Of a stretch of DNA of 64,000 bases, positions 32,479 through 63,890 are shown piece by piece; positions within the stretch are counted from its first letter, which is position 1, and each line of letters begins with the position of its first letter. The position numbers and the translations under genes were made by a program. The notes beneath the pieces were generated by a model. It ran no database searches. It saw only the letters and a program-made list of their open reading frames with translations, and was not told the DNA's origin. The DNA is from Candidatus Bipolaricaulota bacterium (GTDB lineage Bacteria > Bipolaricaulota > Bipolaricaulia > RBG-16-55-9). The stretch covers positions 30 to 64,029 of the forward strand of contig JALSGO010000083.1 of NCBI GenBank assembly GCA_026982655.1, given 5' to 3'.

Positions 32479-32502
32479 TTCCCACCCCACCGGGGGTGGG
32501 AA
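32479..32502 (+). promoter_or_regulatory. CsoR-type operator, perfect 10-bp-arm inverted repeat TTCCCACCCC-ACCG-GGGGTGGGAA
   Basis: Read directly; same architecture (CCCACCCC-N4-GGGGTGGG) as characterised CsoR operators; 28 nt upstream of the Rieske gene start. Confidence 0.6.
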
Positions 32503-32530
32503 GAGCCCGAGGAAAGGGGAGGGATCTCTC

Positions 32531-33181: not shown

Positions 33182-33268
33182 AGCCCGCGGGTGCGGAACG
33201 GGCGTGGAATAGAGAGAACAAAGAAGGAAGGCAAAGAAAGAATCTCCCAACGATGGAGGTGCTGTTCG

Positions 33269-42771: not shown

Positions 42772-43142
42772 TCGCGCAAATCGTGGTGAACGTCTTGGGG
42801 CTGCTCGCGATCGTCTGGATCGTCTGGTACTTCTGGATCTACGAGAAGAAGGGCGTCGTGGCCGCGGAGGCGGGCGGCGCTCAAGAAGTTCGCATTCGGG
42901 TCAAGGGGGGCTACGACCCCGACGTCATCGTCGTCCAGGCCGGAAAGCCCGTGAAACTCCACTTCTACCGCGAGGAGGAGGCGTCGTGCAGCGAGACGGT
43001 CGTCTTCCCGGACTTCGCCCAGTCGCTGAAGCTTCCGCCCTTTGAGACCGTCACCCTGGAGCTTCTGCCGGAGAAGCCGGGGGAGTACGAGTTCCACTGC
43101 CAGATGAACATGCTGCGGGGCAAGCTCATCGTGGAGGAGTGA
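42768..43142 (+). CDS. Cupredoxin-like domain small membrane protein fused downstream of copA ([10 protein letters not shown] motif)
   Basis: N-terminal TM helix, ~90 aa beta-sandwich region with Cys/His/Met cluster; paralog of 48785-49270; start overlaps copA stop (ATGA). Confidence 0.6.
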
Positions 43143-45347: not shown

Positions 45348-45371
45348 ATCCCACCCCACGGGGGGTGGGAT
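45348..45371 (+). promoter_or_regulatory. CsoR-type operator, perfect inverted repeat ATCCCACCCC-ACGG-GGGGTGGGAT lying between -35 TTGATC and -10 GATAAT
   Basis: Read directly; 18-bp spacer promoter fully occupied by the palindrome; downstream gene is cytochrome b. Confidence 0.65.
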
Positions 45372-45405
45372 AATGGCGGGCGAAAGGCGGGCGAAGGAGG
45401 GACGC

Positions 45406-46491
45406 ATGGAAGCACAGAAGACGGTCATGCAAAGCCGACGGCGACGCCTCTGGGAGGCGCTCGACGAGCGCCTGGGGTTGAGCGCCCTGAGGTACCCCGT
45501 CCCCGCCCACGCCAACACGCTGGGATATATGTTAGGCGGGATCACCCTCTTTGGCTTCCTCATCTTGATCGCCACAGGCATTTATCTTACGCAGTTCTAC
45601 AACCCCGACCCCAGCCAAGCCCACGACAGCGTCGTCTACCTCGTCGAGCAGACGACGTTCGGGGACCTCGTCCGCAGCATCCACTACTGGACGGCCAACT
45701 TGGTGGTCGTCACCGTTCTCCTCCACCTTCTACGGATCTTCTTTGCGGGGGCGTACAAGCGGCCCCGGGAGGCCAACTGGCTGGTCGGCTTGGCGCTTTT
45801 GGCGATCACCATCGGCTTCGTCTTCACCGGCACGGTCCTCAAGTGGGACCAAGAGGCCTACGAGGCGATGCTCCACAACATGGCCTTCTCGGAGCTTCTG
45901 GGCGGGATCGGGAGCTGGTTCTCCCCAAGTTTTACCCTGAGCGTGCCGATGCTCACCCGCCTCTACGCCGTCCACATCGCGGTGCTCCCGGCGCTCTTCC
46001 TCATCTTGATCGCGATTCATCTGATGCTGGTCAAGTACCACGGGATCTCGCCGCTGCCCACCCTGAACGCTCGGGCGGGCACCTGGGGCAAGGAAGGGAC
46101 GGGCCGCTTCTCCGCGCACCTGCGGCGCATGGTGGGCTACGGGCTATGGCTGCTGGCCTTAGCGGGGGTGCTGGCGCTCCTCTGGCCCGCGCCGCTGGGC
46201 TATCCCCCGGTTCCGGGCGCCGAGGTGACGAAGCCCCCGTGGTTGTTCCTGTGGCTCTACGCCTTCGAGAACTGGGTGGGGACCGCCGGGCTGCTCTGGC
46301 CACCGCTTGTGCTCTTCCTGCTGCTGGCGTTGGTGCCCTTCCTCGACCGCAGCCCCTATCTGGCACCCCGAAAGCGACCCGTAACCGTCACGCTCGGCGT
46401 GGTGCTGTTGCTCTTTTTGGTCGGGTTGAGCGTGTACGTGGCCCTCACCCCGCCGGTGAGCCACATCCAAGGGCAAGGGATGGGAGGTTGA
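45406..46491 (+). CDS. Cytochrome b (bc/b6f-complex type; N- and C-terminal domains fused)
   Basis: Helix B/D bis-His pairs (HYWTANLVVVTVLLH; LHNMAF...VHIAVLP), 8 TM helices; GAAGGAGG RBS before ATG 45406 (ORF opens at 45373 inside the promoter). Confidence 0.75.
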   Translation: MEAQKTVMQSRRRRLWEALDERLGLSALRYPVPAHANTLGYMLGGITLFGFLILIATGIYLTQFYNPDPSQAHDSVVYLVEQTTFGDLVRSIHYWTANLVVVTVLLHLLRIFFAGAYKRPREANWLVGLALLAITIGFVFTGTVLKWDQEAYEAMLHNMAFSELLGGIGSWFSPSFTLSVPMLTRLYAVHIAVLPALFLILIAIHLMLVKYHGISPLPTLNARAGTWGKEGTGRFSAHLRRMVGYGLWLLALAGVLALLWPAPLGYPPVPGAEVTKPPWLFLWLYAFENWVGTAGLLWPPLVLFLLLALVPFLDRSPYLAPRKRPVTVTLGVVLLLFLVGLSVYVALTPPVSHIQGQGMGG

Positions 46492-46495
46492 GACC

Positions 46496-47077
46496 ATGCG
46501 ACCACAGAGCAGTTGGGTTCACGTCGGTTGGATCACAGCGTTGCTGACGGTGGCGGTGGGGATCGGGCTTGCGGTGGGGCTTCCGGGACGGGCCCACGAG
46601 GGCGCGGAGGTGAGCGCCTATCCTACCACCGTGGCCCCGGGGGAGACGCTCTTCGTGGAGGGCGCGGACATCAACCCTAACGGCCCGATCGCCCTCTTCT
46701 TGGAGGGCGTAAAGGGCAAGTTCCGCCTGGGTCAGGTCCGGGGGGACGAGGACGGCGGGTTCAAGACGAGCGTGGCCCTCCCGCCGGATCTCCCGCCGGG
46801 GACCTATTTGTTGGTGGCCGTCGGGGCCAACGGGGAGAAGGCCACCTTCTCGGTGACGGTGGCCGCCGCGGTAAGCTCCCTCACCCAAGAGCCCAGGGAG
46901 CCCACGGACGCGCTCATGGAGCTGGACCGGTCAAGGTCCTCCGAGGAGTGGGCGTTCCTCGCCGTCGTGATCGGGCTGAGCCTGCTCCTGGGGGCGTGGC
47001 TGGCCCGCCCGGAACGGATGGTTGCACCTGCCTCTCCTTCTGCCTCCGCCGCCGAGCCCGACGGGAGCGGGCCTTGA
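46496..47077 (+). CDS. Hypothetical periplasmic Ig-like protein with predicted mature N-terminal His and C-terminal TM anchor (possible CopC-like Cu-binding protein)
   Basis: Signal peptide ...GLPGRA|HEGAEV; beta-rich core; C-terminal helix WAFLAVVIGLSLLLGAWLA. Confidence 0.4.
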   Translation: MRPQSSWVHVGWITALLTVAVGIGLAVGLPGRAHEGAEVSAYPTTVAPGETLFVEGADINPNGPIALFLEGVKGKFRLGQVRGDEDGGFKTSVALPPDLPPGTYLLVAVGANGEKATFSVTVAAAVSSLTQEPREPTDALMELDRSRSSEEWAFLAVVIGLSLLLGAWLARPERMVAPASPSASAAEPDGSGP

Positions 47078-47103: not shown

Positions 47104-48309
47104 ATGAGCCGACGGGGGTACGAAGGAGTTTCGGTCGTGGGGGCCGGACCGGCGGGGCTTGTGGCGGCCCTCACGCTGGCCCGCGCAGGCGTCCCCGTCA
47201 CCGTCTACGAGAAGGGGCCGACGGTGGGCACCCGCTTCCACGGCGACTTTCAAGGCTTAGAGAACTGGTCCCGCGAGCTCGACGTCTTGGAGGATCTCCG
47301 GACGATGGGGCTTGCGATCAACTTCGCCGTGCAACCGCGCGACTCAGCGGACTTCTACGACGCCTGGGACCGGAAGTACGACATCAGGACCCGAGAGCCC
47401 CTCTTCTATCTGGTGCGCCGCGGGGGTGGGGAGGGGAGCCTCGACCGCGGGCTCTACGCCCAGGCCCGGGAGGCCGGGGTGCGGTTCCGTTTCCACACCA
47501 AGCTCGATCGGGTGGAGGGCCCGGCGATCGTGGCCACCGGCCCGCGCTACGCCGACGGCATCTGCGTGGGCTACCTCTTCGAGACGGACCTAGAAGACCT
47601 TACGGCCTGCATCCTCTCCCAGCGCCTGGCCCCCCGCGGCTACAGCTACCTCCTGGTGGCCGACGGTCGGGCGACGCTGGTGAGCTGCCACTTCGCCGAC
47701 CTCCCCCGCTGGCGGGATCATCTGGAGGCCACCGTCGAGGCCTTCCGAAAGCTTTACCGCTTTGAGATGCGGAACCCCCGCTTCTTCTCCGGCTACGGGA
47801 ACCTCTTCGCCCGGGGGCGCTTCCGCGACGGCCAAAAACTCTACGTGGGCGAGGCCGCCGGGCTCCAGGACGGCCTGTGGGGCTTCGGGATGCGCTTTGC
47901 CCTGCGCTCGGGATATCTGGCGGCCCAGAGCCTGCTCTCCGGCCAAGACTACGACGAGCTGGTCCGAAGGGAGCTTCTGCCGCACCACCGGGCGGGGCTG
48001 GTCAACCGCTTTTTCTGGAACCTCTTGAGCGATCGCATGTTGGCGTTCTTCCTGCGGCGGGCGGCGCGCTGGACCGACCTTCGGGGGCGGCTGCGCGAGC
48101 TCGCCGGGCCCCGTCCCTGGAAGGATCGGCTCTATCCCTTCATCCGGGGAGCCTGCGGCTGGCGGGCCCGCTACCGCGACGAGCGCTGCCTCCGGGAGGG
48201 GTGTCCCTGCATCGGGTGCGCGTGTCGGAGTCCTTCGCGTACGATCTCGAGCCCCTGCGTCTCTTGGGGAGCGGCTCGGTTCCGACTCGACATGACGCAA
48301 GTCATTTGA
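47104..48309 (+). CDS. FAD-dependent oxidoreductase (geranylgeranyl reductase-like) with Cys-rich C-terminal tail
   Basis: VSVVGAGPAGLVAALTLARAG dinucleotide-binding motif; tail ERCLREGCPCIGCACRS. Confidence 0.65.
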   Translation: MSRRGYEGVSVVGAGPAGLVAALTLARAGVPVTVYEKGPTVGTRFHGDFQGLENWSRELDVLEDLRTMGLAINFAVQPRDSADFYDAWDRKYDIRTREPLFYLVRRGGGEGSLDRGLYAQAREAGVRFRFHTKLDRVEGPAIVATGPRYADGICVGYLFETDLEDLTACILSQRLAPRGYSYLLVADGRATLVSCHFADLPRWRDHLEATVEAFRKLYRFEMRNPRFFSGYGNLFARGRFRDGQKLYVGEAAGLQDGLWGFGMRFALRSGYLAAQSLLSGQDYDELVRRELLPHHRAGLVNRFFWNLLSDRMLAFFLRRAARWTDLRGRLRELAGPRPWKDRLYPFIRGACGWRARYRDERCLREGCPCIGCACRSPSRTISSPCVSWGAARFRLDMTQVI

Positions 48310-48331
48310 CCCACCCCCTCTGGGGTGGAAT
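48309..48331 (+). promoter_or_regulatory. CsoR-type operator (imperfect): ACCCACCCC-CTCT-GGGGTGGAAT between -35 TTGACC and -10 AATAAT (17-bp spacing)
   Basis: Read directly; paralogous to the 45331-45375 module (CATGACGCA..TCATT..CCCACCCC..GGGGTGG.ATAAT). Confidence 0.55.
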
Positions 48332-48342
48332 AATAGAGTGAA

Positions 48343-48669
48343 ATGTCTGCAGAAGCGCGGCGCGGGATCGACAGCAGGTTCCGGGATCTCCTGTCCCTGT
48401 TGCTCATCGGGGTGTTGATCCTGCCGATGGCCGGCCCCTCCGGCCCCTTCACGGAGTCAGGGGCGTGTTCGGGGAACCCGCTTGAGGCGGGATGCGCTGC
48501 GATTCTGCATGTCGCCCGAGGCACGGCCGGTCATTGCCTGCCTTGTGGTGCCGTTGTCCTCCTGAGCTCTCCTCTGCCCTTTGCCTGGGCACTCGTAGGG
48601 GATTGGACTTCCGCCGGACTTGGCAGCCCGTTGGATCCGTCCTTTGTGCCCTGGCGTCCCCCTGCCTGA
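48343..48669 (+). CDS. Small Cys/His-rich membrane protein, probably leaderless (ATG 8 nt after the -10)
   Basis: TM helix LLSLLLIGVLILPMAG then GACSGN...GCAA...HCLPCG cysteine cluster; no SD. Confidence 0.4.
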   Translation: MSAEARRGIDSRFRDLLSLLLIGVLILPMAGPSGPFTESGACSGNPLEAGCAAILHVARGTAGHCLPCGAVVLLSSPLPFAWALVGDWTSAGLGSPLDPSFVPWRPPA

Positions 48670-48784
48670 CCTCCGCTTCGTTCTTTTGCCCGTGCCCGCG
48701 GTCCTTTGAACGGGCCTTCGTCGGCCTAAGGGATCGTACGTATCTCAACTCCATCTGCAATCTGCACAAGGAGCAGGAGGTCGA

Positions 48785-49270
48785 GTGCCAATGCCTAAGA
48801 AGACGAACAAGGATCGGAAGGTCAAGCAGCAGCGTCTACTCCGGCAGGGGGCGGCCGGGGGCTGGCGGCCCTGGGCCTTTGGGGCCGTCACCCTCGGGGT
48901 GCTAACAGCCGCGTTTGGGCTGCTCTTGCCGAAGTTCTTCGCCGACGGTCCCGCAGCGGACGGGGAGGCCAACGTCATCCTGGTCGAAGCGGACATGGCC
49001 GGGCTCTATCCCAAGGAGATCCGGGTCAAGGCCGGGGAGCCCGTGACCATCCGCCTGCGCAGCTTGGACAACCGGTTCCACCTGGACGGGGGAGGCAAGC
49101 ACCAGTTCGCCATCGACGAGCTGGGGGTCAACATCATCGCTCCGCCGCTCGGCACGGCCGAGGCCACCTTCATCCCTACGGAACCGGGTGAATACGAGTT
49201 CTACTGCGACATCTGCTGCGGCGGGCGGGCCAACCCGACCATGGTAGGGAGGCTGATCGTCGAGCTATGA
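48785..49270 (+). CDS. Cupredoxin-like domain protein (EYEFYCDICCGG motif), membrane-anchored
   Basis: Paralog of 42768-43142 (shared PGEYEF-xC motif and beta-sandwich core); GGAGCAGGAGG RBS. Confidence 0.6.
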   Translation: MPMPKKTNKDRKVKQQRLLRQGAAGGWRPWAFGAVTLGVLTAAFGLLLPKFFADGPAADGEANVILVEADMAGLYPKEIRVKAGEPVTIRLRSLDNRFHLDGGGKHQFAIDELGVNIIAPPLGTAEATFIPTEPGEYEFYCDICCGGRANPTMVGRLIVEL

Positions 49271-50109
49271 GCGCTCTGACCCAGATCTCCGCGCGCAAGG
49301 TGGTGCTGGCCTCGGCGATCGCCCTGGGGGTGATCGCCGCCGCGGTCTTCTTGGGGCTGCGGCACCCCTCCGCCCAGGCCGTCCCGATGAGCCCGCTCCT
49401 CCCGGCGGTGACGCTGGGGACCATCGTGGTGGCCGGGATCGTCGACGGGATCAACCCCTGTGCCTTCACGGTGCTCCTACTGTTCGTTACTGCCCTGCTC
49501 GCGAGCCTGCAAACCCGCAGCGACGTCGGGATCGCCGAGAACGTGGGGGCCACGCGCGCCCGGATCGTGGGGCTCGGCTCCATCTACATCGCAGCCATCT
49601 TCCTCACCTACCTGGCGCTGGGGGCGGGGCTCTTGGTGACGGCAGATCTCTTCGTGCGGGAGCACCTGCCCGCCCGGATCGGGGCGCTGCTCGCCATCTT
49701 CCTCGGGCTGTGGATGCTCAAGGACTACTTCCTGCCCGGGTGGGGCTGGCGGCTGGGGGCCCCCAAGGTCGTGGGGGAGTGGGCCCGGCGCGCGGCCCGG
49801 AAGATGACCGTCCCGGCGCTGGCGCTCGGGGGCTTTCTCATCGGGCTCTGCACCGTGCCCTGCAGCGGGGCGGTCTACCTGGCGGTGCTGGCGCTCCTCT
49901 CGACCCAGCCGACCGCGACGGCCTTCGGGTACCTGGTGCTCTACAACCTGATGTTCATCCTCCCGTTGGTCGGGGTGCTGGCCGTGGCCGCGTCGCGCCC
50001 GGCGCTGAACCGCTTGGCCCGCTGGAACCTCCACCACCGGGAGGGGGTCCGGCTGGCCTTGGGGTCGGGTGTCGTGCTCATGGGGCTGTTCATCCTGTAC
50101 ACCGTCTAG
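49267..50109 (+). CDS. Cytochrome c biogenesis CcdA/DsbD-family thiol-disulfide transmembrane protein
   Basis: Two TM-embedded Cys (DGINPCAF; CTVPCSGAV) in 6-8 TM helices. Confidence 0.7.
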   Translation: MSALTQISARKVVLASAIALGVIAAAVFLGLRHPSAQAVPMSPLLPAVTLGTIVVAGIVDGINPCAFTVLLLFVTALLASLQTRSDVGIAENVGATRARIVGLGSIYIAAIFLTYLALGAGLLVTADLFVREHLPARIGALLAIFLGLWMLKDYFLPGWGWRLGAPKVVGEWARRAARKMTVPALALGGFLIGLCTVPCSGAVYLAVLALLSTQPTATAFGYLVLYNLMFILPLVGVLAVAASRPALNRLARWNLHHREGVRLALGSGVVLMGLFILYTV

Positions 50110-50159
50110 CTGGGAAACGGAGAACGGATCGAGAACCCAGGAGAAAGGAGGAAGCGGCG

Positions 50160-50480
50160 GTGAACAACCATCATGCGGGAGGCGGCAAGCCCTGCCACGT
50201 CGAGCGGCTGGAGAAAGAGGTGGACATGGAGGCGCTGCGCTCCACCCGGGTCAGCATCCTGGCGGTGACGGGGATGGGGTGTCCCAACTGTGCCCTGCGG
50301 GTGCACAACGCGCTCCTCGCCCTCCCCGGCGTCCATCGGGTGGACGTGGAGCTGGAGGCCGAGCGGGCGATCGTCTACTGGGACCCGACCGCCCTGCAGC
50401 CGGAGAGGCTGATCGAGGCGGTCTCCCAGGCTGCGGCGGGGACCCCTCACGACTACCGGGCGTACTTCGTGAAGCCGTAG
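50160..50480 (+). CDS. Heavy-metal-associated (HMA) domain protein, CopZ-like (GMGCPNC)
   Basis: MxCxxC motif in beta-alpha-beta-beta-alpha-beta context; AGGAGAAAGGAGG RBS before GTG 50160. Confidence 0.65.
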   Translation: MNNHHAGGGKPCHVERLEKEVDMEALRSTRVSILAVTGMGCPNCALRVHNALLALPGVHRVDVELEAERAIVYWDPTALQPERLIEAVSQAAAGTPHDYRAYFVKP

Positions 50481-50642
50481 CGGAGCCACAGACGCAGAGC
50501 GGGGCTGCCCGGGGCCCGAGTCACCGTCGTCGCATCGGCTTCCACCTCCGCCCCGGGCAGCTCCCCGCCCTGCCCGCCGACGGCAGGGAGCTCCCACACA
50601 CGGGGAGAGAAGGAGAAAGGGAAGACACAAGGAGGGATTTCC

Positions 50643-51173
50643 ATGGACCTTAGGCTCATCGCCGTTGCGATCGTCTCCTTGGCGCTGGGGTTCCTCTTGG
50701 CCTCCGGCCTGCGCCCGGAGGTCGGGGTGGGGCCTTCGGAGGCGGAGCGGATCTTGGAGCGGCTGCGGCGCGAGATCATCCCGGAGGAGGGCAGCCCCAC
50801 GGGCTACGGGATCGCCTTCAGCGAGGCGGGCTACCAGACCCTGGTGGCCAAGAACCGCACACTCAGCGTCCCGCCCGAGCGGGCGGACGACTTCGAGGGC
50901 CTGGACATGAGCCTGCCCTGCTGTCCCTTCCAGAGCCCGAGCGTCGACGAGGCGAAGAACTGCCCGTGCGAGCACCATCAGGCGCTCTACGGGCTGGCCA
51001 AGTGGCTCCTCCAAGAAGACTATCCCGCAGACCGGGTCCAGGAGGAGGTGGCGCGCTGGAGCCGCTACCTCTTCCCCAAGGAGGCGCTGCGGGCGGAGAT
51101 GGAGCGGCGGGCGAAGCTCGATCCCGCCGTCGAAGCCGCCCTGGAGGAGCTCAAGGCCAAGGGGAAGTGCTAG
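50643..51173 (+). CDS. Membrane-anchored Cys-rich hypothetical protein (LPCCPF...NCPCEHH motifs)
   Basis: N-terminal TM helix; two CC/CxC clusters plus HH; AAGGAGGGA RBS. Confidence 0.5.
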   Translation: MDLRLIAVAIVSLALGFLLASGLRPEVGVGPSEAERILERLRREIIPEEGSPTGYGIAFSEAGYQTLVAKNRTLSVPPERADDFEGLDMSLPCCPFQSPSVDEAKNCPCEHHQALYGLAKWLLQEDYPADRVQEEVARWSRYLFPKEALRAEMERRAKLDPAVEAALEELKAKGKC

Positions 51174-51227
51174 GCCGATTGGAACAGGGACGACCCGACG
51201 AGATCGAGGACGAGGAGGCGAGCGACG

Positions 51228-52541
51228 ATGATGGCATCCACAGCCGAACCGGCGGAAACGGAACCCCGACGGGGCGGGGGCCTGGGGAAGAGCCTTCGGG
51301 AGCGCTGGGCGCTCTGGACCCTGGGGCTGTTCGCCCTGCTGATCGTAGGGCTCTTCTTCTTCTACCGCCCGCCCATGGAGGAGAGCATCACGGGGGACAC
51401 CTTCCACCCCATCCGCGGGCTGATCGGCTTCCCCCACGGCCCGGGGGCCGCCGCGGAACCCTACGACGAGGAGGCCCTCGACCGCTTCGTGGAGGAGACG
51501 ATCGCGGAGACCTACGCCAAGGCGCGCATCGATCAGATCAAGCTCCTCCTCATGGGGCTCCTCATCGGCTTGATCCCGCTGGGCTATTACCGCGGTCGGT
51601 CGGACCGCCTAAAGCGCCTGGGACAGCGGGTCAACAAGATCTGGGACCCCTACACCTTCGGCACCGTCTCGGGGCTCCTTTTGGTGGGGGTGATCATCCC
51701 TACGGGGACGGTCCTCGGCCTCTTCTACAGCGCCGACGCGGAGAAGCTCTACGAGAGCATGGCGGGCATCGTGGGGAACCCCATCCTGAGTTTCCTGCGC
51801 AACCTCCACCTCTGGGCCTCGGAGGCGTTCTTGCTCTTCCTGTTCCTGCACACGGCCCGGATCGTCTCCACGCGGGCCTACTTTGCGGGACGCAAGCTCG
51901 TCTGGGTTCTGGGTGTCGTGCTGCTTGTGATCAGCTGGGCGACCTTCCTGATCGGCACCTTCATCCGGGGGGACCAGGAAGCGTTTGAGGCCTGGGTCCA
52001 CATGATGGCCCTCATCCGCTTCATCCCCCTCGTCGGGGACCCGATCGCCGACTTCTTCTCCGGCCCCTTCGCCGTCATGCGGCTGTACGTCTTCCACATC
52101 GTGATCACCACCATCGCCTTGCTGCTGATTCTGGCACCCCACGTGCTGATGCAGAAGGTGTACGTCCACGTGCAGCGGCGCTGGAGGGCGGCCCTTCGCT
52201 ACACCCTGGGGCTTACGGCCCTGATCGCGGTCCTCAGCCTGCTGGTGCCCGCCCCCTTCCTGGCGGAGCCCTACCACGACCTGGAGATCACCAAGCCACC
52301 GTGGCCCTATTACTTCCTGTACGCCTGGGAGAACATCGGCGGCGCGGTGAGCATGATCTGGTCGCCGCTGCTCATCCTGGTGCCGCTGCTTCTGCTGCCG
52401 TACGCGCTGGAGCAGCTGCCACTCGCCCGCCGGACCGCCCAACGGGTGGGCGACTGGGTCTTCTACGGCGGGGTCCTGATCACCTTAGGGCTGAGCTACT
52501 GGGTGGCCGCCTCGGGAATTGTGGCCCACGTCTTCGAATGA
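51228..52541 (+). CDS. Cytochrome b (bc-complex type), second paralog
   Basis: Bis-His helix motifs (NLHLWASEAFLLFLFLH; WVHMMALIRF...FHIVITT), 8-10 TM helices. Confidence 0.7.
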   Translation: MMASTAEPAETEPRRGGGLGKSLRERWALWTLGLFALLIVGLFFFYRPPMEESITGDTFHPIRGLIGFPHGPGAAAEPYDEEALDRFVEETIAETYAKARIDQIKLLLMGLLIGLIPLGYYRGRSDRLKRLGQRVNKIWDPYTFGTVSGLLLVGVIIPTGTVLGLFYSADAEKLYESMAGIVGNPILSFLRNLHLWASEAFLLFLFLHTARIVSTRAYFAGRKLVWVLGVVLLVISWATFLIGTFIRGDQEAFEAWVHMMALIRFIPLVGDPIADFFSGPFAVMRLYVFHIVITTIALLLILAPHVLMQKVYVHVQRRWRAALRYTLGLTALIAVLSLLVPAPFLAEPYHDLEITKPPWPYYFLYAWENIGGAVSMIWSPLLILVPLLLLPYALEQLPLARRTAQRVGDWVFYGGVLITLGLSYWVAASGIVAHVFE

Positions 52542-52590
52542 GGAGGGCCGGACTTGACAACCCTCCCCGGATGGGGTACAGTGAGACCAT

Positions 52591-52613
52591 ATCCCACCCC
52601 AGGTGGGGTGGAT
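52591..52613 (+). promoter_or_regulatory. CsoR-type operator (imperfect): ATCCCACCCC-AGGT-GGGGTGGAT immediately before GATAAG and the MMPL gene start
   Basis: Read directly; TTGACA at 52554-52559 upstream. Confidence 0.5.
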
Positions 52614-52618
52614 AAGGG

Positions 52619-55573
52619 GTGAAGCGAATGGCCCGAGGGCCGGACTTCCTGATACGTTGGCGCGTGCCGCTGCTGGTCGCCGTCCTGGTGGCCACCGCGC
52701 TCTTGGGCGCGGCGGTCATGGGAGCCAAGCTCAACGCCGACTTCTCCACGTATCTTTCCCAAGACAGCCCGCTCGTCCGGGAGTTCAACCGCGTCGGCGA
52801 GGTCTTCAAGGCCAACTACGTCGGCATGGTCCTCGTCCGGACCGAGGATCTGTTCACCCCCGAGAACCTCAGGCTGCTGGATCGCCTGACCCGAGCGTAT
52901 AAGTCCATCGAGGGCGTCGACTCGGTGACCAGCCTCACCAACGCCGTCGACTTCCGGCGGGCCGACGGCGGCCTGGTTGTGGGAAAACTCCTCGAGGGCA
53001 AGCCCCTCCCGACGGCGCCCGAGGAGCTGGAGAGGTTCAAGCGCTACGTGCTCTCCAAGGAGATGTACGTCGGCGCGTTGGTCAACGCCAAGGGCACCAC
53101 CGCCGTGATCCTGGTGCGCCTGCTTCCCAAGGTGAATCACTTCAAGGTCGCCGGGCAGATCGACCAAGTCACCCAGGAGATCGCGCCCAATGCAGAAAAC
53201 ATCTACTACGGCGGGATGCCCTTCCTCATCTACTCCATGACCGGGCTCATCCTCGACAACCTCTTCTTCCTGGTGCCGCTGATCATCCTGTTGCTCGTGG
53301 GGGTGCTGGAGCTGGGTTTCCGCCGCCTGGGCGGGGTGCTCGCCCCCCTGACCGTGGTGCTGCTCGCCGTGGTCTGGACGATGGGGATCCTGGCGCTCCT
53401 GGGCCGCCCGATCGACCTTCTGACCGGGATCGTCCCCATCATCCTCATCGCGATGGGCTCGGCGGACGGGATCCACTTCATGCGGCGCTTCTACGAGGCG
53501 CGGGCCGCCGGAGCCGAGCGCCGCGAGGCCGTGAAAATCACAATGAGGGAGATGGGCACGCCGATCGTCTTTACGTCCATCACGACCATGATCGGGTTCG
53601 CCTCGCTGGCCATCTCGAACTTCGACATCATCCGGACGTTCGGCTGGGCCACCGCGCTGGGGATCTTCCTGGCGCTGGTCGTCACCCTGATCGTGCTCCC
53701 CGCCGGACTGTCCTTTGGCCGGGAGCGGGCCTCCGTGCCTGCCGAGACGGACAACAGCGGGAGGCCGCGCAGCGTCCGGGGAGGGAGCCGGGCGATGGCC
53801 GCCCTGGGCGGGGGGATCCACCGGCGTCCGGGCGCGATCGCGCTCCTGACGGTGGGGGTGATCGCGCTGGCCGCGGTGGGGATCCCCCGCATCGTGGTGA
53901 ACGTGGACTGGTCGCTCTGTCTGGCACGGGGCAGCAAGCCGTACTTGGCGGAGATGCTGCTGCGCCGGGAGTTCGGCGGCTCCCTGCCCCTGCTCGTGTC
54001 CGTGAAGGGCGACGTCAAGGACCCGGCGACGCTGGAGACGATGCGGGCCGTGGAGCGCCACCTCGACGCGCTGCCCGAGGTGAGCGAGGCCGAGTCGATA
54101 GCGTCGGTGCTGGCGGAGATGAACTGGACGCTCAACGGGCGCTTCGCCGTGCCCACCGAGCGGGCTCAAGTCAACAACTTGTGGTTCCTGCTCCAGGGAC
54201 AAGACGTGCTCGATCAGATGGTCCGCTCGGACAACCAAGAGGCGCTGGTGCAGGCGAAGGTGGCCTCGCTGGGCACGGCGGTGATCAGCCGGGTGGTCGA
54301 GGACGTGAACGCCTTCTTGAGCCGCCTGCCCCAGAAGTTGGTCGTCGTGGACGCCGCCCAAGCGCCCCCGGATGCTCAACAGGCGCTGAGGGAACTCCAA
54401 GCTCAGCAAGTGAAAGAGGCTCTGGCTCAAGACCTGCGGGCCAAAGGCCTTTCGGTTGAACCCGCGGCGCTCGAAGCTGTTGTTGAGGCAGCGCAGAGCT
54501 GGACCCCCGGCGAACCCGACTACGCGGCGCTCGGCGAAGCCATTGAGAAATATTTGCTGAGCCCCGAGTCCGAGGTGCCGTTCGACGACCCTGCACAGGC
54601 CGCGACGATAGCCGAGTCGATCACCACAGCGCTCAGCGAGCGAGGCGGACGGCCATTGAGTGTCTCTGAGTTAGAAGCGTTGCTGCGCCCCCAGGTCGAG
54701 ACGTCCTACCCCGAGGACGTGGCCTGGCTGGCAGAGGCGTTAGTTTATCGCGTCGATGAGTTTTTAGATGCCCGTCGCGTGGAGGCGGCTTACGCGCAGC
54801 TGGCCGCCCAGCTGCCCCCGGAGGCGCGCTCCAACACGGATCTTGCGAAGAAGCTGCGCGGCGACCTTTGGGGGCTGACGACTGCGACGCTGGCGCTCGG
54901 TCCCCAGCAGTACGAGTCCCTGCAGGCCCAATATGGTCTGGACCTCGCGCGGACGGTGACCCTGGCCGCCGAGCCCTCGGGCCTAGCCCCGGTGCTGGAT
55001 CAGATGGAGAAGGAGCTGCTCCCCACCCAGATCGAGAGCACGGCGCTGGCCTTGTTGGCCGTGACGCTCTTGCTGATTTTGGTGTTCCGCTCGCTGCGGG
55101 CGGGGCTTTTGGGGATCGTCCCCGTGGGCCTGACCATTCTGGTCAATTTCGCAGTGTTAGGCTACTTCGGCATCGGCCTGGACTCGTTCACCGCGATGAT
55201 CGCCAGCATCACCATCGGCCTGGGGATCGACTACGCGATCCACTTCACCCACCGCTTCCGGAAGGAGTTCGAGCGCTCCGGCGACGAGCGGACGGCCCTC
55301 ATCACCACGTTGCAGACGACGGGCGTGGCGATCCTCATCAATTCGTTTTCGGTGGGCGCGGGGTTCGCCGTGCTGCTCTTGGCCGGCGGCCAGCACATCC
55401 GGCTCTTGGGAGGCCTTACGGCAATAGCGCTCCTGGTGAGCGCGCTCTTCACCCTGGTCGTGCTCCCGGCGCTCACGCTCTTGTGGAAGCCGCGCTACTT
55501 TCAGACCCCCGTCGTCGTGGAGCCGAAGCTGCGCCCTGAGCCCGAAGCCGAGAGGGGAGTTCAAAGCGCGTGA
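52619..55573 (+). CDS. RND superfamily transporter, MMPL family (984 aa, large periplasmic domains)
   Basis: Duplicated 6-TM bundles, MMPL motifs (GSADGIHFMRRF; GLGIDYAIHFTHRF); real start may be ATG 52628 (leaderless). Confidence 0.8.
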   Translation: MKRMARGPDFLIRWRVPLLVAVLVATALLGAAVMGAKLNADFSTYLSQDSPLVREFNRVGEVFKANYVGMVLVRTEDLFTPENLRLLDRLTRAYKSIEGVDSVTSLTNAVDFRRADGGLVVGKLLEGKPLPTAPEELERFKRYVLSKEMYVGALVNAKGTTAVILVRLLPKVNHFKVAGQIDQVTQEIAPNAENIYYGGMPFLIYSMTGLILDNLFFLVPLIILLLVGVLELGFRRLGGVLAPLTVVLLAVVWTMGILALLGRPIDLLTGIVPIILIAMGSADGIHFMRRFYEARAAGAERREAVKITMREMGTPIVFTSITTMIGFASLAISNFDIIRTFGWATALGIFLALVVTLIVLPAGLSFGRERASVPAETDNSGRPRSVRGGSRAMAALGGGIHRRPGAIALLTVGVIALAAVGIPRIVVNVDWSLCLARGSKPYLAEMLLRREFGGSLPLLVSVKGDVKDPATLETMRAVERHLDALPEVSEAESIASVLAEMNWTLNGRFAVPTERAQVNNLWFLLQGQDVLDQMVRSDNQEALVQAKVASLGTAVISRVVEDVNAFLSRLPQKLVVVDAAQAPPDAQQALRELQAQQVKEALAQDLRAKGLSVEPAALEAVVEAAQSWTPGEPDYAALGEAIEKYLLSPESEVPFDDPAQAATIAESITTALSERGGRPLSVSELEALLRPQVETSYPEDVAWLAEALVYRVDEFLDARRVEAAYAQLAAQLPPEARSNTDLAKKLRGDLWGLTTATLALGPQQYESLQAQYGLDLARTVTLAAEPSGLAPVLDQMEKELLPTQIESTALALLAVTLLLILVFRSLRAGLLGIVPVGLTILVNFAVLGYFGIGLDSFTAMIASITIGLGIDYAIHFTHRFRKEFERSGDERTALITTLQTTGVAILINSFSVGAGFAVLLLAGGQHIRLLGGLTAIALLVSALFTLVVLPALTLLWKPRYFQTPVVVEPKLRPEPEAERGVQSA

Positions 55574-55624
55574 GGAATTTCGTCGGGGAGAGAATATCCC
55601 GTACAATAACAGGAGGTTGTTCCC

Positions 55625-56407
55625 ATGAAGCGTAGTGGAAGTAGAACGAGAACGGTGATCCTCGGACTGACGGTGACGTTGCTCCTGGCGGTCGGCGCTT
55701 GGGCGATCACGGGCGACGAGGTGCTGCAGAGGTCTCAAGAGGCGATGCGGCCCGGCCAGGACGCGACGATCACGGAACGGATGACGATCGCCAAGCCCGA
55801 CGGCCAGACGGACGTGCTGGAGCTCAAGATGTACATGAAGGGGGAGAAGACGCTGATCCGCGTCCTCGCCCCGGAGGACTTCGCGGGCATTGGGCTGTTG
55901 ATCCTGCCCCAGGAGGACGGCGGCGAGGAGATCTGGCTCTATCTTCCGGCCTTCCGGGACGTGAAGCAGATCGTGGCCGAATCCTTGAGCGAGGGCTTCG
56001 TCGGCTCGGACTTCGCCTACGAAGATCTCACGGTGCGCTACACCTCCAAGTGGGACGTGACCTCCATGAGCGAGGAGGAAGGGCAATACGTCCTGACGCT
56101 GGCTCCCAAGCCCGAGGCCCAGCTCAGTTACAGCGGGGCGCGCATGTGGGTGGACCAGGAGACGTTCCTGCCCACGCGGGCGGAGTTCGACCGGGAGGGA
56201 GAGCTGCTCAAGGTGCTGACCCTCTCGGAAGTGCAGGACTTCCCCAGCGTCGCGGACCCCGAGACGAGCTACCCCACCCCGACGCGGATCGAGATGGCCA
56301 ACGTGAAGACGGGGAGCCGGACCCTCATCGAGCTTTTGGAGGTCGAGTACGACACCGGGCTCTCGGACGACTTCTTCACCGTACGCAACCTCAAGCGGGG
56401 CGAATAA
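55625..56407 (+). CDS. LolA-like outer-membrane lipoprotein-sorting family protein (MMPL-associated)
   Basis: Signal peptide, LolA-like half-barrel signature (IWLYLPAFRDVKQI...GSDFAYEDL); paralog of 60626-61486. Confidence 0.65.
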   Translation: MKRSGSRTRTVILGLTVTLLLAVGAWAITGDEVLQRSQEAMRPGQDATITERMTIAKPDGQTDVLELKMYMKGEKTLIRVLAPEDFAGIGLLILPQEDGGEEIWLYLPAFRDVKQIVAESLSEGFVGSDFAYEDLTVRYTSKWDVTSMSEEEGQYVLTLAPKPEAQLSYSGARMWVDQETFLPTRAEFDREGELLKVLTLSEVQDFPSVADPETSYPTPTRIEMANVKTGSRTLIELLEVEYDTGLSDDFFTVRNLKRGE

Positions 56408-56460
56408 GACTGGACTGAGCTAAGATAGCCGTACACAAGCCGTAAAGGGAGAGGAGGGGG

Positions 56461-57798
56461 ATGGGAATGGCGCAAGCGACGGCGACGGCAGATCGCACGG
56501 AAGCCCAAGTGCGAGCGGTTTTAGACCGCCTGCTCGAGGCCATCCGCCCGAGGGAGTTCGCCGTGCGACTCTGGAACGGGGAGGTCATCGAGCCCGACCC
56601 CGGCCATCCGGCCCGCTTTACGCTCGTACTTAACCACCCGGGCGCGCTGGGGCGGATGCTCTGGCCGCCCTCGGACCTCACGATAGGAGAAGCCTACATC
56701 CGGGGGGACTTCGACGTCGAAGGAGATCTCATCGCCGCCTTCTCGCTGCGGGAGCACTTCACCCGCCCGCCGTTCCGCCTTACGGAGATGCTGCGCATGG
56801 TCCGCGTCCTGCGCCGAGCGGCCCGGACGGCCCCTCCCCTCCAGCCCGATCGAGGGCCCGCGCGCCTGCGCGGGGCGCGCCACTCCAAGGAGCGGGATCG
56901 GGCCGCCGTCCGCTACCACTACGACGTGGGCAACGACTTCTACGCCCTGTGGCTCGACCGCAACATGGTCTACTCCTGCGCGTATTTTGAGACGGGCACC
57001 GAAGATATTGACACAGCCCAGGAAGCCAAACTGGACTACATCTGCCGCAAGCTGCGCCTTCAGCCGGGAGAACGGCTGTTGGACATCGGCTGCGGCTGGG
57101 GCGGACTCCTGATGCACGCGGCCCAGCACTACGGCGTCGAGGCCGTCGGCATCACGCTAAGCCCCCCGCAAGCCGAATGGGCCCGGGAGCGCATCCGCGA
57201 GCGGGGGCTCGCCGACCGCTGCCGGGTGGAGGTCGCCGACTATCGCGACTTCGACGAGGGCCCCTTTGACAAGCTGGTGAGCGTCGGGATGTTCGAGCAC
57301 GTGGGCGCGAAGATGCTCCCCGTCTACTTCCAAAAGGCCTGGTCGCTGCTTAAGCCCGGCGGGGTTTTTCTCAATCATGGGATTACGCTGGGCCCGGGCC
57401 CGCGCGACGAGCCGAGCTGGTGGGGACGCACGCTCTTTAAGCAGGGGCTGTTCATCCAGCGATACGTCTTCCCCGACGGCGAGCTGGAGCCGATCCACGA
57501 GTCGCTCCAGGCCGCCGGTGAGGTGGGCTTTGAACTTAGGGATGTGGAGTCGCTGCGCGAGCACTACGCGCTCACCCTGCGCCGCTGGGTCCAGCGCCTG
57601 GAGGCCCGCCACGACGAGGCCGTCCGCGCCGCGGGCGAGGCCGTTTATCGCATCTGGCGACTGTTCATGGCCGGATCGGCGTATCACTTCGAGATCGGGA
57701 GGCTCAACGTCTACCAGGCGCTCTTCGTCAAGCCCGATCGCGGGCGGAGCGGTTTGCCTCTGACCCGAGCCGACTGGTATGCTCGCCCTAGTTCCTAG
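56461..57798 (+). CDS. cfa: Cyclopropane-fatty-acyl-phospholipid synthase family SAM-dependent methyltransferase
   Basis: YDVGNDFYALWLD, LLDIGCGWGGL, VSVGMFEHVG and the other CFA synthase motifs. Confidence 0.8.
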   Translation: MGMAQATATADRTEAQVRAVLDRLLEAIRPREFAVRLWNGEVIEPDPGHPARFTLVLNHPGALGRMLWPPSDLTIGEAYIRGDFDVEGDLIAAFSLREHFTRPPFRLTEMLRMVRVLRRAARTAPPLQPDRGPARLRGARHSKERDRAAVRYHYDVGNDFYALWLDRNMVYSCAYFETGTEDIDTAQEAKLDYICRKLRLQPGERLLDIGCGWGGLLMHAAQHYGVEAVGITLSPPQAEWARERIRERGLADRCRVEVADYRDFDEGPFDKLVSVGMFEHVGAKMLPVYFQKAWSLLKPGGVFLNHGITLGPGPRDEPSWWGRTLFKQGLFIQRYVFPDGELEPIHESLQAAGEVGFELRDVESLREHYALTLRRWVQRLEARHDEAVRAAGEAVYRIWRLFMAGSAYHFEIGRLNVYQALFVKPDRGRSGLPLTRADWYARPSS

Positions 57799-57815
57799 GG
57801 AAAGGGGGTGATACG

Positions 57816-58022
57816 ATGAACGAGTCGTTCACCGATCCCGTCTGCGGGATGACGATCGATAAGAGCCAAGTCGCCGCGACCCTCGAGTACGGAGGGAAAA
57901 CGTACTACTTCTGCTCCCCCGGCTGCAAGGTCGCCTTCGAGCGCGAGCCCGAGAGGTATGCCGAGTCGGAGTCCAAGCCGGAGTCCTCGGAGGGGAGCGC
58001 TCCCGGGTCGTCCTCTCCTTGA
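57816..58022 (+). CDS. YHS/TRASH domain small protein
   Basis: DPVCGMTID...YYFCSPGCKVAF, same motif as the copA2 N-terminus. Confidence 0.7.
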   Translation: MNESFTDPVCGMTIDKSQVAATLEYGGKTYYFCSPGCKVAFEREPERYAESESKPESSEGSAPGSSSP

Positions 58023-58060
58023 AGTTCACCCCTTGGATAAACGAGGGAGCGCGAAAGCCT

Positions 58061-58106
58061 CCCGGACCGGCGGGGACCGAGGGACATCCCTCCCCGCCGG
58101 TCCGGG
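58061..58106 (+). terminator. Strong GC hairpin: 15-bp perfect stem CCCGGACCGGCGGGG / CCCCGCCGGTCCGGG with 16-nt loop, 39 nt after the YHS gene stop
   Basis: Inverted repeat read directly; no U-tract. Confidence 0.3.
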
Positions 58107-58188
58107 GCCGAGGACGGACCCCGCCCTCTCCACAAGATCTCCACAGCTCTTTCACCGGGACTTCACACCCCCTCCCTAAGGTGTCCTC

Positions 58189-60585: not shown

Positions 60586-60625
60586 TGGAGAGATTTTACA
60601 GAACCCCATAGGAGGTTGACCGACC

Positions 60626-61486
60626 ATGAGGCAGAGCACAAGCAACAGACTCCTCACGACCGGACGGACGTTGGGGCTCCTGGCCCTGGGGCTGCTCCTC
60701 ACGCTGGGGGCCTTCCCCGTGGTCCTCACGCAGGCCCAAGCGCAAGGTCCCTCGGCGGAGGAGATCATGCAACAGGCGAAGGACCGCTGGCAGGGCGAGG
60801 ATTTCACGTCGGCCGTGCGGCTTACGACCGCGGAGCCCGGCGGCGGGGAGACCGTCCTCGACGTCGACTTCAAGGCCAAGCTCATCGAGGAGAGCCGGGA
60901 CTCGGGTGCGTTCCGCTACAAGGTGTTGGCCCGCGTCACGGCCCCGGAGGACGTAGCGGGCTGGGCGGTCCTCATCTGGGAGCAGGAGTTCCCCACCCCG
61001 GACGACATCTGGCTCTACCTGCCGGCGCTCGAGTCCACGAAGAAGATCTCGCTGGAGAACTTCCGTAACCCGCTCTTTGGAAGCGAGTTCGTGTTCGAGG
61101 ACGTCATCGGGCGCGAGCCGGGGCTCGACACCCACGAACTCCTGCGGGAGGAGACCCTCAACGTCGGCGGCGAGGACCGCCCCGTCTGGGTGATTAAGAG
61201 CACGCCTCAGGACCCCGATCTGGCGGGCTTCGCCTACCGCATCACCTACGTGGACCGGGAGACGCTCTTGGAGCTCCGCATGGAGCTCTACAACGACACC
61301 GACGCGTTGATCAAGCTCTACCAAGCCGAGGAGGTGCGAGAGCTGCAGGGCATCCCCACGTGGGTTACGGCGACGGCGGAGAACCTCGAGACGGGTCGAG
61401 TCACCACCTTCGAGTTCCTCGAGCCGGTCTACAACACGGGCGTTCCGGACGAGATCTTCGACCCGGAGCGGTTGGGGCAGCCGTAA
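60626..61486 (+). CDS. LolA-like outer-membrane lipoprotein-sorting family protein (MMPL-associated)
   Basis: Signal peptide; IWLYLPALESTKKI...GSEFVFEDV, paralogous to 55625-56407. Confidence 0.65.
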   Translation: MRQSTSNRLLTTGRTLGLLALGLLLTLGAFPVVLTQAQAQGPSAEEIMQQAKDRWQGEDFTSAVRLTTAEPGGGETVLDVDFKAKLIEESRDSGAFRYKVLARVTAPEDVAGWAVLIWEQEFPTPDDIWLYLPALESTKKISLENFRNPLFGSEFVFEDVIGREPGLDTHELLREETLNVGGEDRPVWVIKSTPQDPDLAGFAYRITYVDRETLLELRMELYNDTDALIKLYQAEEVRELQGIPTWVTATAENLETGRVTTFEFLEPVYNTGVPDEIFDPERLGQP

Positions 61487-63131: not shown

Positions 63132-63886
63132 ATGGTCTTAGACCCATCCGAGCCCAACCCGGCGCAAAAGGCGATGCCCTCGAAGGCCTTCCCCATAGAT
63201 CCGGAAGCGACGGGGGTCACGCGGGCGCGCTACGACCGCGTGGCCCCCGTCTATGACCTCTACGAAGGCCTGATGGAAGGGCTCTTCTTCCGCTCGTGGC
63301 GGCGGCTCGTCTGGGGCGCCGTCCAAGAGCACCTGGAGCACCTGCAGCAAATCGCAGCCGCCACGAGCGCAGCGAAGCCCCGCTTGCTGGAGGTCGGCGT
63401 GGGCACGGGCAAGAACCTGCCCTACTACCCCGGAGGCGTCGAAGCCCTAGCCATCGACCTCAGCGAGAAGATGCTGGAGCGCGCCCGGAAGCGGGCTCTC
63501 AAGCTGGGAAAGCCCGTAGATTTGCTCCCGATGGACGCCCAGGCCCTCGCCTTCCCCGACGAGTCCTTCGACGTCGTGGTGGCCACGTTCGTGTTCTGCT
63601 CTGTGCCCGATCCCGTCCTAGGGCTCCGCGAAGTCAACCGGGTATTGAAGCCCCACGGACAGGTGGTTTTGCTGGAGCACATGCGTCCGCGCTCCGAGCG
63701 CTTGGGGAAACTCTTCGATCTCTTCAATCCCCTCGCCGTGAGGCTGACCGGGGCGAACATCAACCGCCGTACGGTCGAAAACGTCCGCAAGGCGGGCCTC
63801 GAACTTGAGAGCGTAAGGGAGCTCTCGGCCCAAGGAATCGTAAAGCTTATCGTAGCCCGAAGGGGCTCACCCGAAGGAGGTCAGCC

Positions 63887-63890
<4 letters not shown>
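63132..63890 (+). CDS. Class I SAM-dependent methyltransferase (UbiE/COQ5-like)
   Basis: LLEVGVGTGKNL motif I, acidic post-I and DVVVATF motif. Confidence 0.7.

Follow-up and report, generated by a model that had tools for sequence, protein, structure and literature searches.

A putative CsoR-controlled gene cluster for copper and envelope thiol handling in a Bipolaricaulota bacterium

A cluster of six same-strand genes in Candidatus Bipolaricaulota bacterium (assembly GCA_026982655.1, contig JALSGO010000083.1) encodes, in order, a small Cys-rich protein, a cupredoxin, a divergent CcdA-like membrane protein, a CopZ-like HMA protein, a protein here called PCC, and a divergent cytochrome b (cytochrome b2). 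It occupies positions 48343-52541 of the window, that is, of the whole 64,000-nucleotide stretch analysed (positions 30 to 64,029 of the contig). The operon appears, from its promoter sequence, to be switched on by copper through the repressor CsoR. We interpret it tentatively, with a confidence just short of even, as a CsoR-derepressed operon for the capture of Cu(I) and the protection of extracytoplasmic thiol chemistry against copper. An earlier note on this DNA had listed the same six genes within the same limits, and had proposed a module for copper and thiol handling and for respiration. Its gene content is borne out, all six genes being judged real in a check of open reading frames (ORFs) and conservation. 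Copper and thiol handling fits the genomic context, whereas a respiratory role is not established.

The CsoR operator and the proposed operon

The regulatory elements and the six genes are as follows (lengths in amino acids, aa).

35924-36238, + strand: CsoR repressor gene, acting in trans (PF02583, 6e-24)
48306-48334, + strand: promoter with embedded CsoR operator; -35 TTGACC, operator CCACCCCCTCTGGGGTGG (48311-48328), -10 AATAAT
48343-48669, + strand: gene 1, small Cys-rich membrane or exported protein, 108 aa
48785-49270, + strand: gene 2, membrane-anchored, outward-facing cupredoxin with a variant CuA-like site (PF13473, 3.8e-13)
49267-50109, + strand: gene 3, divergent membrane protein of the CcdA/DsbD superfamily
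50160-50480, + strand: gene 4, cytoplasmic CopZ-like HMA protein, 106 aa, with GMGCPNC motif (PF00403)
50643-51173, + strand: gene 5, PCC protein, 176 aa, N-terminal membrane anchor and all-helical extracytoplasmic domain
51228-52541, + strand: gene 6, cytochrome b2, a divergent dihaem cytochrome b, 437 aa, without Cys
52554-52611, + strand: downstream promoter (TTGACA-17-TACAGT) and perfect CsoR box at 52594, driving the MMPL gene at 52619

The promoter upstream of gene 1 scored 10 of 12 in a promoter scan. Its operator is a perfect palindrome, CCACCCC-N4-GGGGTGG, and is almost identical to the operator used experimentally with Mycobacterium tuberculosis CsoR, GTAGCCCACCCCCAGTGGGGTGGGATAC (PMC10601412). 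Perfect copies start at 32482, 45351, 48311 and 52594; these four compare with none in 100 shuffles of the window, the GC content of which is about 67%. The copies at 45351 and 48311 lie inside sigma-70-like promoters, and that at 52594 lies just 3' of the -10 element of the promoter at 52554-52582, which itself holds a copy with three mismatches. This downstream promoter and box probably mark the downstream limit of the operon. The CsoR encoded at 35924 has a Cys-x24-His-x3-Cys spacing, equal to that of the Cu(I) ligands C36, H61 and C65 of M. tuberculosis CsoR (PMC10601412). The description of the cluster as CsoR-operated is thus well supported in silico by an operator inside the promoter, by the number of copies and by a CsoR gene in the same window.

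Related loci, cited by number, bear on how far this control extends. The same box and -10 element precede the orthologous first gene in L006, and in L001 a single box (at 3997) precedes a co-directional array running from cytochrome b1, a second cytochrome b that is encoded upstream of the cluster in the window, to cytochrome b2. No CsoR boxes were found in more distant loci, where two-component regulators often occur instead, and CsoR control is therefore taken to be specific to the host lineage. The search for homologous clusters that the earlier note had called for showed that the order small Cys-rich protein, cupredoxin, CcdA-like protein, HMA protein, PCC and cytochrome b2 is kept only in the metagenome contigs L006 (about 90% identity) and L001 (about 70%).

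Under the proposed mechanism, CsoR would, at low copper, occupy the palindrome that separates the -35 from the -10 element and block transcription. Binding of Cu(I) would free CsoR, and the six genes would then be made along with the Rieske-CopA, cytochrome b1 and MMPL units elsewhere in the window. In the cytoplasm, the CopZ-like HMA protein would buffer Cu(I) and pass it to the CopA pumps. At the outer face of the membrane, the small Cys-rich protein, the cupredoxin and PCC may capture Cu(I), carry thiol-disulfide equivalents, or both, and the CcdA-family protein would bring reducing equivalents across the membrane from the cytoplasm. The cysteines of the exoproteins would thereby stay reduced under copper, and clients such as apocytochromes c and prolipoproteins would be protected. 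The Cys-free dihaem cytochrome b may be a lineage-specific respiratory addition, and together with the co-regulated Rieske protein it would most likely sustain quinol oxidation when copper hampers the maturation of c-type cytochromes. Copper blocks the assembly of c-type cytochromes in the periplasm (PMC4600104) and impairs lipoprotein acylation (PMC6538781). A defence of envelope thiols is the simplest reading because CcdA-family proteins, Cys- and His-containing exoproteins, Lgt, ccm and thioredoxin (Trx) genes, LolA-like and MMPL proteins and copper pumps keep recurring in these loci.

The putative copper- and thiol-handling proteins

The first gene shows weak codon-position GC (0.66/0.61/0.71), and we considered that it might be a non-coding leader. 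That reading was dropped, and the ORF is taken as coding, on account of orthologous ORFs of similar length (108 aa in L006 and 110 aa in L001) with a stop aligned to that of the window ORF and with invariant residues. The protein at all three loci has a hydrophobic N-terminal signal or transmembrane segment and retains C42, C51, H56, a C65-LP-C68-GA motif and a C-terminal PWRPP. It was found only in these three closest loci, and it has no Rfam match at the ORF and no Pfam family even at E<=10. The transcript may be leaderless, given that the ATG of this gene lies 8 nucleotides 3' of the -10 element.

The second gene, which probably starts at ATG 48791 and the stop of which overlaps the start of the CcdA-like gene (ATGA), encodes a cupredoxin with a long basic N-terminal tail and a single transmembrane segment, from which an outward-facing domain is predicted. 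Among solved structures it is closest to the CuA domains of N2O reductase (4e-10). The residues H99, H106, C141, C144, C145 and M153 are invariant in eight homologues, and the motif reads CDICCGGxANPxM. H106, C141, C145 and M153 align to four of the five CuA ligands, which are His, Cys, Cys, His and Met; an invariant N150 stands where the second His would be, and C144 and H99 are additional invariant residues. The match to the NCBIfam CopI model is sub-threshold only. A solved 100-aa Cupredoxin_1 protein (PDB 4HCF and 5TK2) has been deposited both as 'Cupredoxin 1' and as 'Cytochrome B'; no literature on it was found, and this double name was not used as evidence of a link between cupredoxin and cytochrome b.

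The CcdA-like protein has more than 2000 homologues, many of which, at 60-70% identity, carry the DsbD_TM domain (PF02683) and the JGI name CcdA. Its two Pro-Cys motifs, P64-C65 and P198-C199, do not vary and line up with the Pro-Cys motifs that true CcdA carries in its first and fourth core helices. The protein also has an extra N-terminal helix, and its invariant residues include C195 (in C195-x3-C199), M41 in an outer loop, H133 and H256-H257, with H33 nearly invariant. The adjacent HMA protein most likely starts at GTG 50160, judging from the GGAGG site before it and the 106-aa orthologue in L006. It matches PF00403 with 51.8 bits against a cut-off of 24.8 (1e-13) and lacks both a hydrophobic segment and an export signal, which places it among CopZ-type proteins; its scores against the CopZ-type NCBIfam equivalog models are below their cut-offs. 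An N-terminal CHVE motif is retained in L006, L016 and L017 and reads CNVE in L002.

The widespread unit is the pair of cupredoxin and CcdA-like protein, usually accompanied by the HMA protein. It occurs without cytochrome b in L002, L005, L009, L016 and L017, where its neighbours include genes for CopA, CsoR, multicopper oxidase, YHS, YtkA and SHOCT proteins and P-type ATPases. An arrangement of this kind mirrors that of MerP, MerT and NmerA. It suggests another explanation, in which the triad would form a mer-like relay, with Cu(I) passing from the CxxCC site of the cupredoxin to membrane cysteines of the CcdA-like protein, then to the HMA protein and on to CopA or to cytoplasmic storage; the CcdA-like protein would be a conduit for metal and not for electrons. 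The unit that is conserved best indeed consists of a Cys-rich binder facing outward, a membrane protein in which two helices carry Cys, and an HMA protein in the cytoplasm; the additional C195, H256-H257, H133, M41 and H33 are typical Cu(I) ligands. Moreover, the best Pfam match of the CcdA-like protein is not DsbD_TM, and the CcdA/DsbD superfamily includes several metal-ion transporters. We nevertheless regard such a relay as improbable. Under a repressor that opens when copper is high, copper import would make little sense for the cell, the close homologues match DsbD_TM and are named CcdA, both catalytic Pro-Cys motifs are in register, and we know of no member of the CcdA family that transports metal.

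Several observations on the same proteins weigh against thiol protection as the role of the cluster. The window CcdA-like protein falls under every Pfam threshold (the SfLAP match has 23 bits against a cut-off of 35). A profile built from its subfamily alone retrieved nothing from the PDB, including solved CcdA, and alignment to true CcdA with hhalign gave 8% probability. The AlphaFold2 (AF2) model has a predicted local distance difference test (pLDDT) score of 46, too poor for a fold search, and the additional invariant residues of the protein (Cys, His and Met) would suit a metal path as much as an electron path. No gene for a thioredoxin-fold protein, the partner expected of a CcdA-like protein, was found in the cluster or in the window, and 6 of 11 distinct PCC loci have no CcdA-like gene within 10 kb. 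Finally, thiol protection explains only weakly why two cytochromes b and a Rieske protein should be under CsoR control. A profile match to solved CcdA depended on the inclusion of a true CcdA in the profile.

PCC is named for its LPCC motif, which is followed by NCPCEHH. C93, C94, C107, C109, H111, H112 and C176, the very last residue, are invariant, and some homologues have a lipobox in place of the N-terminal anchor. No relatives were found in Pfam, NCBIfam or the PDB, nor in Pfam for 25 members of the family, in agreement with the earlier description of this protein as belonging to an unrecognised family. The homologues fall into 42 clusters, every one of them from a metagenome or from Chloroflexi metagenome-assembled genomes, and the family is rare outside Chloroflexi. 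A profile search reached 193 representatives, the distant ones having a CxxCCG...CGCxH...GGC-end pattern and likewise no Pfam family; one distant member of the superfamily adjoins a DsbA-like gene. The AF2 model is all-helical with a pLDDT of 92. Foldseek gave no match to it in the PDB, and the best structural match of the model is CcmH. Specifically, PCC could not be identified as a CcmH (PF03918), having no LRCxxC motif and no sequence-level relation to that family, or as a PCYCGC protein (PF13798), which none of the 25 members matched in Pfam and to which hhalign aligned 5 residues at 1% probability. One homologue, P0047 (608 aa), is a natural fusion in which a YncE-like beta-propeller is joined to PCC by a middle domain of about 150 aa; this domain is the same as the 179-aa product of a gene in L001 (region L001:6185-7852).

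PCC occurs in the setting of the copper triad in the window and in L001, L006, L002, L005 and L009. Elsewhere its neighbours belong to cytochrome c maturation: in L007 and L012 it heads a cluster of PCC, a protein of about 170 aa, one of about 85 aa, Trx, CcmF, CcmH and DZR, and in L008, L010 and L011 it is close to Trx-CcmF-CcmH genes. Cytochrome b2 has similar neighbours, since in L015 it stands directly before CcdA-Trx-CcmE-CcmF-CcmH genes, in L006 a 140-aa gene and Trx-CcmE lie downstream of it, and in five of six loci a gene of the CcdA family is no more than 5 kb away from it. These neighbourhoods raise the possibility that the maturation of cytochrome c has an accessory branch hardened against copper, in which PCC, the CcdA-like protein and cytochrome b2 would serve System I (Ccm). 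PCC would carry thiols in the manner of CcmH, cytochrome b2 would provide haem or thiols with quinol-linked reductant, and the copper genes would merely be co-regulated neighbours. We consider this decidedly unlikely. The window contains no ccm gene, PCC has no relation to CcmH or PCYCGC proteins at the sequence level, and with only six loci among 185,579 species genomes it is far too rare for a general Ccm component. In addition, the ccm-type loci also hold a small His- and Met-rich membrane protein, and copper may be the theme common to both settings.

Several small proteins accompany PCC and cytochrome b2 in the related loci. The protein of about 170 aa is conserved after PCC in L007 (10516-11321), L002 (10552-11354), L011 and L012 and has no family. 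The next protein, of about 85 aa, is a Cys-, His- and Met-rich membrane protein that has a CC motif and ends in a tail rich in His and Met (MMKGMMNHDHAGQDHAAHH); it precedes Trx-CcmF-CcmH. In L006, the 140-aa protein encoded at 12137-12559, between cytochrome b2 and Trx-CcmE, has a CPCGAC...ECHC pattern followed by helices; it loosely recalls PCC and CcmH, with an hhalign probability of only 4.6%. Lgt genes lie in or beside the orthologous clusters (L001:10634-11374, L006:9757-10548 and L002:19840-20552), which fits the impairment of lipoprotein acylation by copper (PMC6538781). There is no Lgt gene in the window.

Cytochromes b, the Rieske protein and the copper island

The respiratory side of the cluster depends on cytochrome b2 and on two further CsoR-boxed units upstream.

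32482-33181, + strand: perfect CsoR box (32482-32499) and Rieske gene (32531-33181; PF00355), a candidate partner in trans
45351-46491, + strand: CsoR box (45351-45368) in a promoter-like site, and cytochrome b1 (PF00033, 2e-29)

Cytochrome b2 matches PF00033 (66.5 bits) and PF13631, and retrieves solved cytochrome b6 at 3e-10. Its haem ligands are H194/H208 and H290/H305, with spacings of 13 and 14 residues, as expected for helices B and D of the cytochromes b of Rieske complexes, and it has two extra N-terminal helices. The Qo motifs are lost: PEWY is replaced by PPWP, and the PW(G/D)Q-type loop by IRGDQ. The subfamily is rare, with 21 hits. In L013 its neighbours are an HMA protein, a CcdA-like protein of 37% identity, a beta-CASP nuclease, DUF1573, rhodanese and CopA, and in L015 they include, besides the maturation genes, a YHS protein and DUF1573. 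The position of cytochrome b directly after the Cys-rich PCC, to which the earlier note had drawn attention, holds only in the window; Lgt intervenes between PCC and cytochrome b2 in L006, and Lgt and EamA in L001.

Cytochrome b1, which probably starts at 45406, is the sister unit that in L001 is joined to the cluster behind one box. It retains LKWDQ but has PPWL, and its match to the SoxC model is sub-threshold. A 193-aa protein encoded directly 3' of it (46496-47077) has an N-terminal signal anchor, a Cys-free beta-rich body and a C-terminal transmembrane helix, and has no Pfam family; cleavage (GRA|HEG) could leave a His at its N-terminus. It occupies the position expected of a cytochrome c1-type subunit, and the pair is also present in L001.

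The Rieske protein has a twin-arginine (Tat) signal and CTHLGC...CPCHGS motifs. A scan of metagenomes for the gene returned only one close relative, and the arrangement of box, Rieske and CopA, which forms the CsoR-boxed unit 32482-35848 of the window, is also found in L018, a metagenome contig of 83% nucleotide identity. The cluster itself contains neither a Rieske protein nor a c-type acceptor; 19 kb separate the cluster from the Rieske gene upstream, and nowhere in the 64-kb window is a protein with a CxxCH motif encoded. The earlier observation that no such partner is adjacent is therefore correct. Its further suggestion that the Rieske protein at 32531 serves in trans is upheld in one respect, that the gene carries the same CsoR box and is hence predicted to be co-regulated, and is not supported in another, as no Rieske match was found in any PCC or cytochrome b2 locus.

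These genes could together compose a copper-induced quinol oxidoreductase without c-type cytochromes, made of the Rieske protein and cytochrome b2, cytochrome b1 or both. The CuA-like cupredoxin would stand in for cytochrome c1 or c as the electron acceptor, and the CcdA-like protein, the HMA protein and PCC would be an assembly line that reduces the site cysteines and supplies and inserts copper. One type of CsoR box precedes the Rieske gene, cytochrome b1 and the operon of cytochrome b2, and the single box before the array in L001 agrees with this. Further points in its favour are the Tat signal and complete cluster motifs of the Rieske protein, the four haem-ligand His and absence of Cys in both cytochromes b, the lack of CxxCH proteins in the window, the four CuA ligands of the cupredoxin, which is nearest to electron-transfer domains, and the recurrence of the cytochrome b2 subfamily in copper-related neighbourhoods. 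Archaeal SoxM complexes provide a precedent, as they combine a cupredoxin, sulfocyanin, with a Rieske/cytochrome b pair, and the sub-threshold SoxC match of cytochrome b1 points the same way.

We nonetheless judge such an enzyme unlikely, and the alternative quinol oxidoreductase linked to copper that the earlier note had put forward is not established. The triad of cupredoxin, CcdA-like and HMA proteins is widespread without a nearby cytochrome b or Rieske gene, and no cytochrome b was found within 10 kb of PCC or of the cupredoxin-CcdA-like pair in the more distant loci. Cytochrome b2 lacks the PEWY and PWGQ-type motifs of the Qo site, one CuA ligand, the second His, is missing from the cupredoxin, a terminal acceptor was not identified, and the association of cytochrome b2 with ccm genes suggests a c-type partner elsewhere. 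In its fullest version, a Rieske/cytochrome b complex with the cupredoxin as acceptor and a dedicated assembly line, in which PCC represents a new class of copper-insertion protein or thiol carrier, the idea is a long shot. If it were true, the cell could turn from haem c to copper for its respiration once the maturation of cytochrome c is blocked by copper, and the complex would be a bacterial counterpart of the archaeal sulfocyanin arrangement.

Whichever role the cytochromes b play, filtering by GC content at third codon positions and Pfam scans indicate that the cluster belongs to a single co-directional copper island, which extends from 32.5 to 64 kb of the window and comprises, besides CsoR and the cluster itself, the following genes in order.

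Rieske at 32531, then CopA at 33191
After CsoR (35924): an MMPL protein and two DUF1573 proteins
CopA with a YHS domain at 40099, then a small cupredoxin at 42768
Between that cupredoxin and cytochrome b1: a beta-CASP nuclease and a HAD hydrolase
Upstream of the cluster: cytochrome b1 (45373), the 193-aa protein and an FAD oxidoreductase
Downstream of the cluster: MMPL at 52619, a LolA-like protein, a cyclopropane-fatty-acid-synthase-like methyltransferase and a YHS protein
In the 3' part: a second MMPL and LolA-like pair, then a beta-propeller-rhodanese protein (61682-63124) and a methyltransferase

The island thus holds two CopA pumps, a CupA-like chaperone, YHS proteins and MMPL/LolA-like pairs. 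The small cupredoxin at 42768-43142 is a clear homologue of Streptococcus pneumoniae CupA (3.6e-22 to PDB 2MRY/4F2E), which indicates that CupA-type chaperones are present in the host lineage. It retains both Cys and the CxMxM motif (HCQMNM), and the orientation of its transmembrane segment predicts a cytoplasmic domain; the CopA-CupA pair is also present in L001 and L005. Immediately 5' of the cluster operator, 47104-48309 encodes a geranylgeranyl-reductase-like, FAD-dependent oxidoreductase with a Cys-rich C-terminal tail (CLREGCPCIGCAC), retained in L006 as CQEEGCSCVWCTC. Related flavoproteins recur near cytochrome b2 or HMA genes in L013 and L002, and the enzyme could bind metal or resemble a cupric reductase. 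Downstream, 52554-61486 encodes two MMPL/RND-like transporters with a LolA-like (TP_0789-like) protein after each, the first unit being boxed at 52594; this suggests copper-induced export of envelope lipids or lipoproteins. The UbiE-like methyltransferase at 63132-63890 has homologues of 50-55% identity at L016:14223-14855 and L017:13712-14359, a few kb from the triad of HMA protein, cupredoxin and CcdA-like protein.

Relation to known systems and significance

The regulatory logic of the cluster and its CopZ and CopA parts are already known. Like the CsoR regulons of M. tuberculosis (the cso operon) and Bacillus subtilis (copZA), the island has a Cys-His-Cys repressor, a GC-rich pseudo-palindrome overlapping the promoter, CopA-type pumps and a CopZ-like protein. 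It differs in having at least four boxed units, which include a Rieske protein, two cytochromes b, MMPL/LolA-like and CcdA-like proteins and new exoproteins. To our knowledge, copper control of Rieske and cytochrome b genes has not been described, and no description of it was found in the part of the literature that was searched. The same search found none of the PCC family, of the small Cys-rich protein or of the pairing of a CuA-variant cupredoxin with a CcdA-like protein.

The combination of a CcdA-family protein with envelope Cys proteins has partial parallels. The copper-tolerance system ScsABCD of Salmonella, Proteus and Caulobacter likewise joins a membrane protein of the DsbD superfamily to Cu(I)-binding envelope Cys proteins (PMC7785015). 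Unlike Scs, the cluster has no thioredoxin-fold partner of the ScsC or ScsD kind, its conduit has no periplasmic domain, the partners are the cupredoxin, PCC and the small Cys-rich protein, and the host belongs to a different phylum. Similarities to the CcdA-ResA/CcmG-CcmH branch of cytochrome c maturation are the Pro-Cys motifs kept by the CcdA-like protein, the best structural match of PCC, which is to CcmH, and the Trx-CcmF-CcmH neighbours of PCC in other genomes. The window, however, is devoid of ccm genes, PCC lacks LRCxxC and sequence similarity to CcmH, and the CcdA-like protein is set apart by a third invariant Cys, a His-His motif and one more helix at its N-terminus. YcnL of B. subtilis, a DsbD-like gene in a copper locus, is mentioned as an unconfirmed lead only.

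With the CuA domains of N2O reductase and cytochrome oxidase subunit II, and with PmoD, the cupredoxin of the cluster shares its fold, the residues H106, C141, C145 and M153 and an outward-facing, membrane-anchored topology; it differs in having Asn150 for the second His, in the extra Cys144 and His99 and in being encoded outside any oxidase or reductase. CopI of Rubrivivax gelatinosus is also a cupredoxin-type envelope protein, and is induced by copper in an organism in which cytochrome c assembly is a target of copper (PMC4600104). The cluster cupredoxin, which matches the CopI model only below threshold, has other metal-site residues, is membrane-anchored and is paired with a CcdA-like gene. 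Cytochrome b2 and the Rieske protein resemble the bc1, b6f and archaeal SoxM complexes in the dihaem four-helix core, the His spacings, a fused C-terminal part like subunit IV and co-regulation of the Rieske gene. They depart from them in the 19-kb distance of that gene, the absence of a c-type cytochrome, the loss of the Qo motifs and the two extra N-terminal helices.

Taken together, the cluster appears to be a real and partly new copper-defence module and not a proven new respiratory enzyme. As far as we know, extracytoplasmic copper defence is well described only in Proteobacteria and a few Firmicutes. The triad of CopZ-like protein, CuA-like cupredoxin and CcdA-like protein is large, uncharacterised and recurrent, with more than 2000 homologues of the CcdA-like protein alone, and PCC is a rare, confidently folded family with five invariant Cys and two invariant His. 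Genes for a Rieske protein and two cytochromes b appear to be under a copper repressor, and the ties of PCC and cytochrome b2 to ccm genes connect copper stress to the attachment of haem c, a connection that has experimental support only in one proteobacterium. If confirmed, the proteins of this cluster would be testable candidates for keeping envelope thiols and respiration working under copper stress.

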